The notes beneath the pieces were generated by a model, which was not told where the DNA came from, searched no databases, and was given only the letters and a program-made list of their open reading frames with translations. A DNA stretch of 64,000 nt from a virus (taxonomy: Duplodnaviria > Caudoviricetes). Each line of letters begins with the position of its first letter. Within the stretch, counting starts at the first letter, position 1. Location of the stretch: positions 1-64,000 of the IMG/VR virus record IMGVR_UViG_3300033076_001139. One strand, given 5' to 3'. The position numbers and the translations under genes are program-made. Shown here one piece after another: positions 6,015 through 52,051 of the stretch.

Positions 6015-7856
6015 TTACCTGCAAGACCTCAGAATATGGGATTCGACCAGAACCTTACAGGTTTCCGGCAACGCATCCAACATATCCGAAAGTCCGGCGA
6101 CAAGCCCGTAGTTGCCTGCCCCAAAGGTATCGTCGTACAGCTTGGCGCTGCTCTTCGACCCAATAGCAAGCACGGACAATACGATTTTGTCCTGGCGCAT
6201 TTCCTCAAGCAGGTTTGCCAAATCTTTGTTGGGATTTCCTGTGGAGTCGTGCGCACGACACGTCGTGGGAAGGCCGTCAGTCATCAATACGACAGCGCGA
6301 GAGGTCTTTGCGCTCGACGCCCAGTGCTGTGCAACCTCAATTGCCTGCACCATACTCGTGCCGCACATCGAAACGCCCTTCGCATCGCGCGGGCTTCCGA
6401 CCTTGGGGAACATAAAAAGCTCATCCGAGAAGCCCCAAAGCTCCAGGCGCACGCGCTGATCCGCGCAGGCAAAGTTCACGTCCGCAAGGGCCTGTTCGAC
6501 CATCTGCACGCCGGTGCCGTGCATGGAGCCAGAGAGATCCACGAGCAGGAGAAGGTCGAGACCGCCTTCCATCTTCTTCTTTTCGAAGATGTTGGCCTCG
6601 TCCAGCTCGTTGTTCATCTTCGCTTCGATAAGGGCCTCGATATCAATATCGTCGCCTTCCTCCGCAAGACGGCGACGCACCTTCATGCGAACCTTGTCGA
6701 GATGTGCCTTGGCGCGCATCGCTGCTTCGGTAGGCTTCGGCAGTTCGCGTGTTGGCTGCACCTTGCGGCTGTGGATCCCAGCACGCTTGATGGCAGCCTG
6801 CATCGCAGTTTCCTGCTTCTGCTCCTCGGACTTCTTTGGAAGGCTCATCGCCATCCGTGCGTGCTCAATCTTGTCTTCCATCTGCTGCGCGCCCGCCTCG
6901 ATGAGTGAGGCGAAGGAGGACTTTCCATCGCCGGCGTCATCGTCGTTGCGTGCAGTCATGATGCGGGTGACCTGATTGCGCTGCGCAGCCGTCAGCTCTT
7001 GCTTCTTGTCTCCGTGAGAGACATCACCTGAGCCAAGACCATTTTCGTCGTCCGGGTCAATTGCACCCGACATGTTCCCGCAGGCACCGAGCAGCTGGTC
7101 GATTTTCTGCTGGGCCTGCTGCTGCGGATTTGGGGGCGGCTGGTTGGGATCCGGAGGCGGAACATCCTCCAGCAGCTCATCGATAATGTCGTCAATGAGT
7201 CGACGCGTAATGGCCAGGGCCGATGCCGCATCAACTCCCTCGACTAAGTTCAGAGCACGCTGCATGTGCGGCTTACATCGCTTGAACCGATCCGGCGCGT
7301 TCGGAGTATCCACGCTCGCCGCACAGCGGCCAAGGTACTCCAGCAGCTCCTTCTCCGCCGCCTCTTCCCGCTCGTACGCGGAGATGTCGTGCCACCGCTG
7401 CTTCAGCAGGCGTCCGCCTTCTGGGTAGAGCTGTGCCCACAGACCACAGCAGCGGTAGTCCTCAAGCACATTCCAGAGATACTGGAAGGTCATCTCAAGG
7501 CGAGACTTTTGCGGACCACAGTTGGGATCCGTGATGGCCCAGCCTGCGCGGTGCATCATCCGCTCCACGGTCTTCGTACGGCAGTCCTCCATGAGGGGGA
7601 GGTTCGTACTGAAGAGCACATGGCTCAACTCGTGCTCCACAACGAGGTAACCCTCGGGGTGGTGCAGCGGCGCACGGATAAATGTCCGACAGTCCGTTGC
7701 GCCGCTGGGGGCCTTGATCAGCTTCAGCGGTACTTCAACGATGTCAGAGAAGACTTCCACAAGAGCCTGCGAGCGCTTGGTGACGTAGTCCTCATCACCC
7801 GTCATCGCCCCAAGAGGCAGAGGAGGCCTGCCTCCCTGAGATAATGGATTGATCAT
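6015..7856 (-). CDS. CobT-like VWA protein with N-terminal HExxH domain
   Basis: EHELSH...NVLEDYR; MIDAS DLSGS...T...TDG; adjacent AAA gene. Confidence 0.85.
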   Translation of the reverse strand: MINPLSQGGRPPLPLGAMTGDEDYVTKRSQALVEVFSDIVEVPLKLIKAPSGATDCRTFIRAPLHHPEGYLVVEHELSHVLFSTNLPLMEDCRTKTVERMMHRAGWAITDPNCGPQKSRLEMTFQYLWNVLEDYRCCGLWAQLYPEGGRLLKQRWHDISAYEREEAAEKELLEYLGRCAASVDTPNAPDRFKRCKPHMQRALNLVEGVDAASALAITRRLIDDIIDELLEDVPPPDPNQPPPNPQQQAQQKIDQLLGACGNMSGAIDPDDENGLGSGDVSHGDKKQELTAAQRNQVTRIMTARNDDDAGDGKSSFASLIEAGAQQMEDKIEHARMAMSLPKKSEEQKQETAMQAAIKRAGIHSRKVQPTRELPKPTEAAMRAKAHLDKVRMKVRRRLAEEGDDIDIEALIEAKMNNELDEANIFEKKKMEGGLDLLLLVDLSGSMHGTGVQMVEQALADVNFACADQRVRLELWGFSDELFMFPKVGSPRDAKGVSMCGTSMVQAIEVAQHWASSAKTSRAVVLMTDGLPTTCRAHDSTGNPNKDLANLLEEMRQDKIVLSVLAIGSKSSAKLYDDTFGAGNYGLVAGLSDMLDALPETCKVLVESHILRSCR

Positions 7857-8713
7857 CCGTAGAGCTTAACGACGTTGAGGTTGACGCCAAAGCCGCTCTG
7901 GACACGGGCACGGAACGAGTTGATGTGCTCGCCCTCGTACTTGCCCTCAAGGAGCTTGAGGGCACGGTCGCGATCAAGCGACAGCATGTTCTTCACGAAC
8001 TGCACAAGGTCGCGAGTAGAGAGGGCGTAGCCCATACGCTCAGAGCGCGTCTCCTTTGCGATGTTCATGATTTTGTCAATCTCCTGCTTCTCCTTAGCAG
8101 AGGGAGGAGTTGGGAACTGCGAAATGAGCAGCGCACGCTCGTCATCTGCGCCCATGTAGTTCACTTCGATGAACTCGAAACGAGAACGGAAGTCCTCATT
8201 CAGAGAGTACGTGCCTGCGTAGTTGGGGTTCATCGTGCCGACGACCCACAGCAGCGCACCTTCGCGCAGGTTGAAAACGCGTCCGACCTTCGGCAGGGAG
8301 ACAGCCTTGCGGTAGTCGCACAGCGGGTTGAGGATCTTCTGCGTCATCGGCGGAAGGGTGTTGATTTCTTCCAGCACGAGGATGCACGACCCGACCTCGT
8401 TCGCCACGTCAATGGCCGCCGTGACGGAGCCCATCTGGAAGAACACGTCACCTCCCTGCGCGGAGTACGTGCCCAGCAGGTCTCGGACGCTCGTCTCCTC
8501 ACAGCACTCCTGGCGGAGCAGCGGGATTGCGTTGACGGCAGCAAGCTGTTCAAAGGACATCGTCTTGCCTGCTCCCTTCGGACCCTTGAGGATCAGGTTG
8601 GGGCCAAACATCAGGTCGTTCAACGTCTTCAGCAAGCCAGTGTCCACAAAGTCCTTCTGTGCCTTCGGCGTCAATTCTTCAGTGGGAATACGTCGAAAGT
8701 CGACCTTGGACAT
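7853..8713 (-). CDS. MoxR/CbbQ/CobS-like AAA+ ATPase
   Basis: Walker A GPKGAGKT, Walker B LVLEEIN, TMNP, FRSRF, STRDL; GGAGG 7 nt before ATG 8713. Confidence 0.9.
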   Translation of the reverse strand: MSKVDFRRIPTEELTPKAQKDFVDTGLLKTLNDLMFGPNLILKGPKGAGKTMSFEQLAAVNAIPLLRQECCEETSVRDLLGTYSAQGGDVFFQMGSVTAAIDVANEVGSCILVLEEINTLPPMTQKILNPLCDYRKAVSLPKVGRVFNLREGALLWVVGTMNPNYAGTYSLNEDFRSRFEFIEVNYMGADDERALLISQFPTPPSAKEKQEIDKIMNIAKETRSERMGYALSTRDLVQFVKNMLSLDRDRALKLLEGKYEGEHINSFRARVQSGFGVNLNVVKLYG

Positions 8714-8804
8714 GCACATGCCTCCTATGGTTAGTGCAAATGCTTGTGACAAACTTGCAGTCTTTCTTCACCTACGCTATGCGTAGTGCACGGAGGCCGA
8801 CGAC

Positions 8805-9717: not shown

Positions 9718-10539
9718 ATGAACAACTTCGACGCGCAGATCATTGAAGTCCCTACGAAGGAAATTGTCATCGGCCGGACCTTCAAGAATATCCGCCGTTA
9801 CTTCGATGAAGAGAGCGTCCGCAACTTGGCGGAGAACATCCAGCAGAACGGCCTGATGAACCCAGTGGTCGTCATGCAGTCTGAGGATGACGATGGTTCC
9901 GTGTTTACGGAGCTGGTTGCTGGTGAGCGTCGCCTGCGCGCGATCACTTACATCCAAAACAATCTCGACTCCGAGTTCATGGAGAACGGGATTCCCTGCA
10001 TTCAGTACGTCGGCACCATCGTCGATGCGAAGTACGCCAACGCGAGCGAGAATATCGACCGCGAGGACGTTGACGATGTCGATGTCTCTTCTTGGCTCGC
10101 TGACCGTGCGCAGGAAGGTATCCCCCAGACGGAGCTTGCTGAGCGCCTTCACCGCTCCCCGCAGTGGGTCAACTTCCGCGTCACGTTCCACGAGCGTGCC
10201 TGTGATGAGCTTAAGGAAGCCGTGCGCGAGAAGATCCTCTCGTTCACCGCTGCCTACGAGCTTGCGAAGAATCTGACCCAGGACGAGCAGCGCAAGCGCA
10301 TCGCGAAGGCGCGCAAGTTCAACGAGAAGATCACGCTTGAGGAGGCACAGCGCGCTGACAAGCCCGAAGCCTCCCCTAAGCCCTCGAAGAAGGCCATCGA
10401 CAAGATGCTCGCCTTCGCTGAGCGCAACGGCACGGACTACGGCAGCGGCTTCTGCAACGCCCTGCGCTGGGTGCTTGGCACAATGACTGAGGAAGAGGTG
10501 AAGCACTTCCTTGAACTTGCTGCGCAGGGGCGTCTGTGA
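9718..10539 (+). CDS. ParB/Srx-like domain plus HTH protein
   Basis: LAENIQQNGLMNPVVV, LVAGERRLRA, ENIDRED, QTELAERLHRSPQWV. Confidence 0.9.
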   Translation: MNNFDAQIIEVPTKEIVIGRTFKNIRRYFDEESVRNLAENIQQNGLMNPVVVMQSEDDDGSVFTELVAGERRLRAITYIQNNLDSEFMENGIPCIQYVGTIVDAKYANASENIDREDVDDVDVSSWLADRAQEGIPQTELAERLHRSPQWVNFRVTFHERACDELKEAVREKILSFTAAYELAKNLTQDEQRKRIAKARKFNEKITLEEAQRADKPEASPKPSKKAIDKMLAFAERNGTDYGSGFCNALRWVLGTMTEEEVKHFLELAAQGRL

Positions 10540-10727
10540 TGCCCGAGGTAATGATTAGGGAGTTTGAGACTCTCTACGACATGATGAAGTCAGGCCCCAC
10601 GGCTCTCGGCTTTACAGCCGACGGTCGTGCGGTGATCTCCTACGTAGTTGTCGCCGATGGACAGGAGCCGGAGTTCATTCCTATTGGTGAACTCACGATG
10701 CCGCTCGGCAGACCGGTAGACGAGTAG
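10536..10727 (+). CDS. Hypothetical protein
   Basis: Coupled to ParB stop. Confidence 0.6.
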   Translation: MMPEVMIREFETLYDMMKSGPTALGFTADGRAVISYVVVADGQEPEFIPIGELTMPLGRPVDE

Positions 10728-10734
10728 AAGAACG

Positions 10735-10765
10735 GAACAGGCCCTTCGGGGCCTGTTCTTTTAGC
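10735..10765 (+). terminator. Intrinsic terminator
   Basis: GAACAGGCCC-TTCG-GGGCCTGTTC then TTTTAGC. Confidence 0.85.
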
Positions 10766-10959
10766 TAAAAGAAAGGCACCAGTATGAAACCTGGGGTGCC
10801 GCCAGTGGTCTATCGGGAGTGAAGACCCGCGCGCTTGTGCACGCCCCGTTCCCTTCCTAGGAACGAGTCACGAAGTTCATACTCTTCGTAATGAACGCAG
10901 GGAGAGAATGACTCACTGCCTTTCCTCTAACCCAGTGAGCTACTCAATCTCCCTGCGTT
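10762..10959 (-). ncRNA. Candidate structured ncRNA (~195 nt) with kissing loop
   Basis: Own promoter (CATAAG 10965-10970) and terminator tail; consecutive hairpins; complementary AGUAUGAA / UUCAUACU segments; no ORF of 60 aa or more. Confidence 0.65.
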
Positions 10960-10988
10960 AAAAACTTATGACCCACAAAATGAAGAAT

Positions 10989-11309
10989 TTATTTCATCAT
11001 CAACTTGGCAATGATCGTCGTCAGGACGGATACCGCGATGCTGATACCTCCCCCAAGTATCGCCAATTTCGTCTTGGCCTCGGCCTCCGTCGTCGCAATC
11101 TTCAGGGAGAGGCGTGAAACTTCCGTCTGTAGCGTCTCAAACGCCTGCTTCGACACCGTGGCCTGCGCCGCCTTAAGCTCTGCCTGATGGAATTCTGCGC
11201 GCAAGCGGCTCTGCTCCTGTTGGAGTGACTCTACTCGCGATGATAAGTTCCCTAGGTCAGACCGAATTAGAAACAGCAGTTCCCGCTCGGATAGATTGCT
11301 CGGATCCAT
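10989..11309 (-). CDS. Coiled-coil protein with C-terminal TM helix (XhlA/holin-like)
   Basis: Heptad-rich body, hydrophobic C-terminus. Confidence 0.6.
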   Translation of the reverse strand: MDPSNLSERELLFLIRSDLGNLSSRVESLQQEQSRLRAEFHQAELKAAQATVSKQAFETLQTEVSRLSLKIATTEAEAKTKLAILGGGISIAVSVLTTIIAKLMMK

Positions 11310-38987: not shown

Positions 38988-39064
38988 TGGCTCCCGCTCC
39001 CTGACTCGAACAGGGGACCCACGGATTAACAGTCCGTTGCTCTAACCAACTGAGCTAAGCGGGA
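38988..39064 (-). tRNA. tRNA-Asn(GUU)
   Basis: Cloverleaf, CCA. Confidence 0.95.
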
Positions 39065-51925: not shown

Positions 51926-52051
51926 CTAAAAGAAATCCCAGACGGCGCGCTTATACGCGCAGCACCCCGTCGGGTGCCGGTCTCATCGTTTGCAGACGGC
52001 CACGTGCGTAGGGCGCATTCTGCGAACCGATGCTGGGATTCCTGAATTGTT

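Follow-up and report, generated by a model that had tools for sequence, protein, structure and literature searches.

A candidate structured non-coding RNA gene with covarying tertiary contacts in a lineage of large, uncultured phages

Orphan structured RNAs are an already known kind of phage product, with GOLLD, ROOL, the pRNA of phage phi29 and the T4 RNAs RNAC and RNAD as examples. ROOL, GOLLD, OLE and raiA are orphan, highly structured 'ornate' RNAs with covarying kissing loops, the first two often phage-encoded (PMC12286853), and RNAC and RNAD are small phage RNAs whose functions are still unknown (PMC9697503). Here we describe an RNA that is a new family within this kind, predicted on the minus strand (10959-10762, 198 nt) of a 64,000-nt window, i.e., the whole stretch of DNA that was analysed, which is the first 64 kb of the linear, 151,105-bp IMG/VR virus record IMGVR_UViG_3300033076_001139 (Caudoviricetes; estimated to be ~81% complete). 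As the best joint explanation of the evidence, we give a probability of about 0.6 to the element encoding a stand-alone, structured non-coding RNA, ~195 nt long and from an uncatalogued family, that acts in trans as a folded particle. That it is a real structured RNA gene, taken as a claim by itself, is very probable.

Structurally, the predicted RNA resembles phi29 pRNA (~120-174 nt) in being phage-encoded and non-coding, with its own promoter and two mutually complementary hairpin loops. The pRNA, however, pairs 4 nt between molecules and is built around a 5'/3' closing helix with a three-way junction, whereas the window RNA strings together six hairpins and adds a 5-8-bp kiss and a pseudoknot. 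A preliminary description of the locus had likened it to phi29 pRNA; as a family assignment this is not supported, since an Infernal/Rfam-type check gives no match (the pRNA family is one that we take to be RF00044) and the record is at least 151 kb long, against ~20 kb for the genomes of phi29-like podoviruses. With ROOL, GOLLD, OLE and raiA the element shares the character of an orphan structured RNA with a covarying kiss, and with it the warning that such kisses can be intermolecular. ROOL and GOLLD are, though, ~3-4 times larger (many GOLLD RNAs exceed 800 nt and ROOL residue numbers exceed 460), and the element, with its simpler serial-hairpin layout, matches none of the Rfam models of ROOL, GOLLD, OLE, raiA or manA. 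T4 RNAC and RNAD, compared by description, are likewise small phage non-coding RNAs and are linked to the T4 tRNA gene cluster; hairpin 1 of the window RNA holds a stretch resembling a tRNA D-arm, but the element lies outside the phage's tRNA cluster (38.2-39.2 kb) and would have its own promoter and terminator. The enterobacterial DapZ and MicL are small RNAs (sRNAs) derived from 3' untranslated regions (3' UTRs) with an internal promoter, are Hfq-dependent, pair through seeds and have little tertiary structure. The likeness there is of layout, in that the 3' end of the upstream coding sequence and the promoter overlap and a Rho-independent terminator follows just downstream of the gene, whereas the window RNA is dominated by a conserved three-dimensional fold.

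Searches against catalogued RNAs point the same way. No Rfam family reaches its gathering score anywhere in the window, and none of relevance appears at E <= 10 for positions 10600-11100, where the matches listed are short chance similarities to snoRNA and miRNA families. Self-cleaving ribozymes (HDV-like, pistol, hatchet and twister, whose models we assume to be in Rfam 15) are absent from that E <= 10 table. ARAGORN finds no tRNA or tmRNA gene in 10600-11100, and the Rfam tRNA model matches only the 12 known tRNAs. The element thus appears to be an uncatalogued, new family of structured phage RNA.

The minus-strand fold of the 198 nt reaches -86.6 kcal/mol (z = -5.27), which none of 200 dinucleotide shuffles equals; the opposite strand folds to -70.6 kcal/mol (z = -3.40). 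Six hairpins follow one another in series, with spacers of 0-2 nt and without a closing helix, the sixth standing after a 6-nt linker. All coordinates and strings of the preliminary description were recovered in the sequence, and its count of four hairpins after the first becomes five in this fold. Hairpin 1 (10894-10959; positions of this paragraph refer to the minus strand) has a predicted 12-bp outer stem AACGCAGGGAGA/UCUCCCUGCGUU, the first strand of which begins at 10959, an inner stem of 4 + 8 bp with the strands GCUCACUG/CAGUGAGU, and the 14-nt loop GGUUAGAGGAAAGG. Hairpin 2 (10868-10891) has an 8-bp stem, UACGAAG-AGUAUGAA-CUUCGUG, and its 8-nt loop AGUAUGAA (10883-10876) would provide the 5' strand of the kiss. 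Hairpin 3 (10845-10867) varies in length and sequence among homologues, hairpin 4 (10829-10844; GCGUGC-ACAA-GCGCGC) is the module with the highest sequence conservation (consensus GCAYANGC), and hairpin 5 (10807-10827) exposes the conserved, C-rich loop UCACUCCCGAU. The linker CUGG (10802-10805) is proposed to pair with CCAG (10794-10791) in the loop of hairpin 6 (10775-10800), which reads GGCACC, then the 14-nt loop CCAGGUUUCAUACU, then GGUGCC, and whose loop carries CCAG and the kissing strand UUCAUACU (10788-10781). A U-rich tail, UUUCUUUUAGCUA (10762-10774), forms the predicted 3' end, and the tail string UUUCUUUUAG noted earlier is present as described. No open reading frame (ORF) of at least 20 aa lies inside the element on either strand, in keeping with what had been stated before.

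Hairpin 1 also stands out for its own sequence. Its 5' half, UAGCUCACUGGGUUAGAGGAAAGG (10916-10939, minus strand), matches positions 7-31 of the phage tRNA at 38991-39064 (minus strand) at 20 of 24 bases, over the acceptor/D-arm region, a score equalled by just one of 200 shuffles; a tRNA fragment may have been the ancestor of hairpin 1, or the hairpin may mimic a D-arm. A candidate pairing of its loop with the 3' tail (GGAAAGGC/GCCUUUCU) was rejected, being lost, by eye, in the homologues L134, L144 and L006.

Homologues were sought by anchoring on the neighbouring ParB and 106-aa proteins, by one metagenome pattern scan and with two covariance models, R1 and R2, which together gave eight further distinct copies, or nine with that of the window. 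The near clade consists of the window copy, L006 (identical in the 168-kb contig L139), L141, L142, L144 (the same as L145), L134 and L143 (cut by a contig end); L038 (E 2e-6) and L035 (the same as L036 and L037; E 7e-4) are divergent. Every copy is syntenic, lying directly after the 106-aa gene and facing a convergent 62-63-aa ORF and ParB, and three further clusters with the 106-aa protein (P0126, P0127 and P0128) have the same 250-270-bp gap, as judged by gap size alone. In pattern searches, TCACTCCCGAT..CACTGG had 18 matches in IMG/VR, 17 of them due to chance, and a hairpin-4/5 pattern had 19 matches in JGI metagenomes, two of them true, and 14 in GTDB genomes, none true, so that no copy was found in a bacterial genome. 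Phages whose ParB is 45-53% identical (G001, G003-G005 and L043-L051) hold no copy detectable by R1 or R2 and have no room for one at the syntenic site. Evolutionarily, the family thus seems to be confined to one sub-clade of uncultured large phages (at least 150 kb).

A separate ORF-free unit of ~190 nt, running from promoter to terminator, occurs in L040 (11403-11976, minus strand; JGI 3300041078, with a ParB 59% identical), between a patatin-like gene and a 103-aa gene. It opens with CGGCATAATG, closes with a long terminator followed by UUUCCUUAGC, and contains the loop GCCUCCCU; CUACGG and CCGUAG could pair in it as a pseudoknot. We did not count this unit as a family member, because despite its CUCCC loop its gene order differs and neither covariance model detects it; possibly the unit is distantly analogous to the window RNA.

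Covariation was assessed in an alignment of the seven near-clade sequences (A7), fitted to the nested structure by R1. Standard pairs fill 96.3% of pair cells, a share that drops to 35-47% on sliding the partners by 1-3 columns, and 22 of the 56 pairs have changed on both sides, a number that none of 500 column shuffles reaches (8.4±2.0); the conserved multi-hairpin fold that the preliminary description would have checked by covariation is thereby supported. The stems of hairpins 1, 2, 3 and 5 vary freely with compensation: both-side changes affect seven of eight pairs in the outer stem of hairpin 1 (helix 1), five of eight in the stem of hairpin 2 (helix 4), where 100% of cells are paired, and four pairs in the stem of hairpin 5 (helix 8). 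G-U cells outnumber A-C cells (26 versus 9), which is what an RNA made from the minus strand would show. The hairpin-1 loop, hairpin 4, the hairpin-5 loop, the linker and the 5' part of the hairpin-6 loop, by comparison, are near-invariant. The hairpin-1 loop GGUUAGAGGAAAGG is unchanged in five of the seven, one base off in L143 and reduced to GGAAAGGC in L006; hairpin 4 is near-invariant in all seven and in L038, with AGCGC-AUAA-GCGCU in L035. Every lineage keeps the C-rich core of the hairpin-5 loop, as CUCCCGA in L035 and most of the near clade, CUCCCAA in L143 and UUCCCUGA in L038. The L035 copy reproduces the architecture of the window as a whole (8-nt hairpin-2 loop, AUAA hairpin 4, CUCCCGA hairpin-5 loop and 14-nt hairpin-6 loop). 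A reading of the hairpin-5 loop as a mimic of the 16S rRNA 3' end was discarded, as CCUCC is unconserved; five family members compared with E. coli 16S, 23S and 5S rRNA gave only chance 9-11-mers, and blastn against E. coli genomes gave nothing.

Beyond the nested stems, the hairpin-2 loop AGUAUGAA (10883-10876) is exactly complementary to UUCAUACU (10788-10781), the last eight bases of the hairpin-6 loop, and shuffled hairpin-6 loops offer an 8-bp match in 0.04% of trials. This kiss was left out of the covariance model, and the fitting therefore introduced no bias into its counts. L006 replaces it by AGUACAGA/UUUGUACU, with U-A becoming C-G, G-C becoming A-U and A-U becoming G-U, so that the pairing survives all three changes in one loop and both in the other (two compensatory pairs and one wobble). 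L143 turns one A-U pair into G-C, and at positions 7-8 of the hairpin-2 loop five of the six variants have bases that can form a pair or a wobble with U. The equivalent loops of L035, AUUUCACG and ACGGAUCGUGGAUA, would kiss as UUCACG/CGUGGA and those of L038 as CUCGG/CCGAG, both unrelated in sequence to the near clade, the kissing hairpin of L038 being separate from, and ahead of, the terminator hairpin. With compensatory changes in L006 and recurrence under different sequences in L035 and L038, the loop-loop pairing predicted in the preliminary description holds up, and we regard the kissing interaction as likely to be real.

A second tertiary pairing may use the same loop. The linker 5' of hairpin 6 is complementary to the first bases of the hairpin-6 loop in each lineage, as CUGG/CCAG in the near clade, where it is invariant (helix 9), as UCCGU/ACGGA in L035 and as ACCG/CGGU in L038; loop shuffles give p = 0.06, 0.023 and 0.11, respectively, and a Fisher combination computed by hand gives ~0.01. 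We propose that linker and loop have the layout of an H-type pseudoknot. Because both pairings recur, the hairpin-6 loop is alike in the three lineages: a pseudoknot strand, 1-2 spacer bases and a kissing strand.

Upstream of hairpin 1 lies the promoter-like motif GTCATAAGT (10964-10972, minus strand), which contains the CATAAG (10970-10965) picked out earlier, with an A-rich element ~17 nt further upstream (10988-10990) that overlaps the stop codon of the 106-aa gene. With at most one mismatch allowed, every one of the 22 copies of the motif in the window lies on the minus strand; over the whole 151-kb genome there are 30 minus-strand versus 4 plus-strand copies. A position matrix of the 22 window sites is A-rich at -18/-17, reads GTCATAAGTA and continues with conserved T+12, G+13, G+16 and C+17. 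Roughly 20 of the 30 copies on the minus strand have a Shine-Dalgarno sequence and an ORF of 60 aa or more within the next 17-80 nt, whereas 10972 is the sole good match in the window without an ORF behind it (the other ORF-less site, 13971, is the weak mismatch variant GTGATAAGT). In all nine homologues the motif stands at the same distance from hairpin 1. None of the plus-strand genes in the window is preceded by the motif, and it therefore probably marks one temporal class of genes, or a phage-specific polymerase or sigma factor. Many motif-led transcripts, that of the element included, would open with a GCAGG-type 5' hairpin, placed before the ribosome site where they are coding.

Written as a consensus, the promoter-like signal is A-rich ~17 nt upstream and then G[TCG]CATAAGTA..TG.aGC, and it heads most minus-strand units. 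Its minus-strand starts in the window include 57977, 57052, 55307, 51903, 51431, 48412, 47671, 45135, 44456, 42287, 41934, 41206, 40668, 38094, 36388, 34514, 25911, 21418, 20316, 15848 and 10972. Beyond the window, at ~127900-128027 of the genome (G000:C1, minus strand), a copy is followed by a 5' hairpin and an acidic, D/E-rich ORF of ~37 aa.

At the other end, the hairpin-6 stem with UUUCUUUUAGC forms the same hairpin-plus-TTTCTTTTAGC tail that ends other minus-strand units of the genome. Promoter motif, terminator and lack of an ORF together therefore look like those of a normal phage transcription unit whose product is not a protein, and the motif class, the TTTCTTTTAGC-type tail and the ORF absence speak for the earlier proposal of a unit that is non-coding and carries a promoter-like motif and a terminator of its own. 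Operationally, the predicted unit has what marks a stand-alone phage sRNA gene, namely its own promoter motif, a terminator, no ORF, and conservation with covariation. A 10-bp GC-rich hairpin found by the terminator scan (10735-10758, bidirectional) makes a second terminator, which ends the operon of ParB and the 63-aa ORF and backs up the RNA's own. The tail TTTCTTTTAGC(C/T) recurs after terminator hairpins elsewhere, e.g., near 51935, 41977, 41238, 39254, 38125 and 35433, and might signal either polymerase-specific termination or RNA processing; at the 3' end of the RNA (10759-10772) it forms a perfect 14-bp palindrome, CTTTTAGCTAAAAG, that serves both convergent units.

Genomically, the element occupies, on the minus strand, a 260-bp spacer between the 106-aa gene (10989-11309, minus strand) and a convergent plus-strand pair. 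The 106-aa product is predicted from its sequence to be a coiled-coil protein with a C-terminal membrane anchor (tail-anchored), and the element begins 30 nt past its stop codon with no terminator between. The convergent pair consists of a ParB-like gene (9718-10539, plus strand; PHROGs and Pfam ParB_N), ~220 bp from the element, and a following ORF (10536-10727, plus strand) with an acidic, 63-aa product. Most proteins of the record are orphans by Pfam and PHROGs, and among the neighbours of the element only ParB_N, an AAA ATPase and weak VWA matches emerge. GenBank phages gave no blastn match, and tblastn of ParB and a 492-aa ORF against them returned only remote Leptospira-phage ParB hits, or none, with no close cultured phage. 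Just upstream of the ParB operon (6015-8752, minus strand), and at homologous loci in L035 and L040, sits a conserved gene pair. One member encodes a MoxR/CobS-like AAA ATPase, which falls into PHROGs ATPase and porphyrin-biosynthesis families in the window and whose homologues in L035 and L040 match Pfam AAA_5; the other encodes a ~600-aa protein whose L035 homologue has a VWA domain.

The sequences themselves show a conserved, covarying fold, a promoter motif of a recurrent class, the absence of an ORF and the synteny; synthesis of the RNA, its end positions and its function we infer. In our proposal, transcription would start a few bases past a promoter motif of the class that drives ~30 minus-strand units and would end at the RNA's own hairpin and U-tract. 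The six serial hairpins would then be fastened by two tertiary pairings, both made through the 14-nt hairpin-6 loop, one a 4-5-bp pseudoknot with the linker and the other a 5-8-bp kiss with the hairpin-2 loop. This would leave exposed the conserved hairpin-1 loop GGUUAGAGGAAAGG, hairpin 4 (GCAYANGC) and the C-rich hairpin-5 loop, on a stable, compact particle that would act in trans by binding or decoying a protein through these loops. We favour such a scaffold or decoy because the conserved exposed elements are obvious contact points for a partner, while holding the function itself as a tentative guess, more doubtful than the gene.

Several points weigh against the proposal of a stand-alone, trans-acting RNA. 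The promoter and both ends of the RNA are predicted, and an element without a terminator between it and the 106-aa gene could belong to that gene's 3' UTR. Covariation of the nested stems may be inflated, because fitting to a covariance model favours them. The kiss has mismatches, a central A-G in L142 and an A-C in L143, and by loop shuffles the complementarity of the loops alone is marginal in L035 (p 0.07) and L038 (p 0.05); chance is unlikely for the kiss because these values combine with that of the near clade and with the compensation in L006. Neither of the neighbouring gene products, the tail-anchored coiled-coil protein and the acidic one of 63 aa, has the look of an RNA-binding protein, and nothing else links the element with a partner. 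The RNA is also missing from more distant relatives of the phage and is thus dispensable for the lineage.

Other readings explain parts of the same evidence. The hairpin-2 and hairpin-6 loops could pair between molecules, hand in hand, and yield dimers, rings or larger RNA-only assemblies: the loops are complementary and covary, the hairpins stand in series with 0-2-nt spacers and no closing helix, and kissing pairs in ROOL and GOLLD that were first taken for tertiary contacts proved to be intermolecular bridges (PMC12286853). Copies linked head to tail in this way would make a miniature counterpart of a ROOL/GOLLD cage or a pRNA ring early in infection, which we also think unlikely. Covariation cannot separate an intra- from an intermolecular kiss, as ROOL and GOLLD showed (PMC12286853). 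Self-assembly seems unlikely to us in that an intramolecular kiss is plausible by a rough estimate (three hairpin bases and the 7-nt linker span a stem-kiss-stem rod of ~21 bp), the RNA is far smaller than the known cage-formers, and the genome, judged by its size and by tblastn of two of its proteins (no search aimed at connector, gp16 or other packaging genes was made), is not a phi29-like packaging system. It is quite unlikely, too, that the element works in cis, as a structured 3' UTR or terminator that shields the mRNA of the 106-aa gene from 3' exonucleases and insulates the convergent ParB operon. Its start 30 nt past the stop codon without an intervening terminator, its constant linkage to the 106-aa gene and its place at a convergent junction with two consecutive terminators would all suit such a role, but a simple stabiliser could do without conserving six hairpins, without invariant loops and without a pair of covarying tertiary contacts. 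In every homologue, moreover, a full promoter motif stands at a constant distance from hairpin 1, as is typical of 3'-UTR sRNAs that have a promoter to themselves.

A base-pairing sRNA, whose loops, above all the CUCCCGA of hairpin 5, serve as seeds for G-rich ribosome-binding sites or for other phage or host mRNA targets, we hold to be distinctly improbable. That loop core is conserved across all lineages, CUCCC complements the GGGAG-type Shine-Dalgarno sequences common in this phage, and the Rho-independent terminator with its U tail recalls Hfq-type sRNAs; a search of the 151-kb genome for the full loop complement, however, gave no specific target beyond one 10/11 match, an elaborate tertiary fold is unusual for seed-type sRNAs, and complementarity to E. 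coli rRNA is at noise level. The preliminary description had also raised a termination switch, in which the kiss controls the terminator, and a CsrA/RsmA sponge acting through GGA loops, and to both we give a very small chance. The kissing loop does belong to the terminator hairpin in most members, but it is the loop and not the stem that kisses, no anti-terminator helix is conserved, L038 has the kissing and terminator hairpins apart, and a second strong terminator (10758-10735) follows, with no gene on the same strand downstream and only ParB, in antisense, beyond it. As for the sponge, two loops of the window copy, those of hairpins 1 and 3, do contain GGA, which bears out that part of the suggestion; the hairpin-3 GGA is, however, found only in the window copy, that of hairpin 1 is conserved only in the near clade, and the homologous loops of L035 and L038 have none. 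Hardly any probability attaches, finally, to a DNA-level element, whether a parS site for ParB or an inverted-repeat replication origin. ParB lies close by, inverted repeats are many and the palindrome CTTTTAGCTAAAAG sits at the 3' end, but the excess of G-U over A-C cells and the unequal folding of the two strands point to RNA, loop-loop covariation is meaningless in duplex DNA, relatives with a ParB 45-53% identical lack the element, and the TTAGC tail is seen again behind terminators of unrelated units.

Well-folded RNAs without an assigned role continue to turn up in phage genomes, and the one proposed here, as a stand-alone and probably trans-acting structured RNA, would add a small (~195 nt) and clearly delimited unit with nine natural variants and two covarying tertiary contacts, properties that make it unusually tractable for chemical probing, cryo-EM or crystallography and pull-downs. 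The strong promoter consensus (A-rich, then GTCATAAGTA..TG..GC) and the terminator signature (a hairpin with UUUCUUUUAGC) help to annotate the transcription units of this uncultured lineage. More broadly, the RNA could test whether the covarying kissing loops of phage RNAs are generally intra- or intermolecular.

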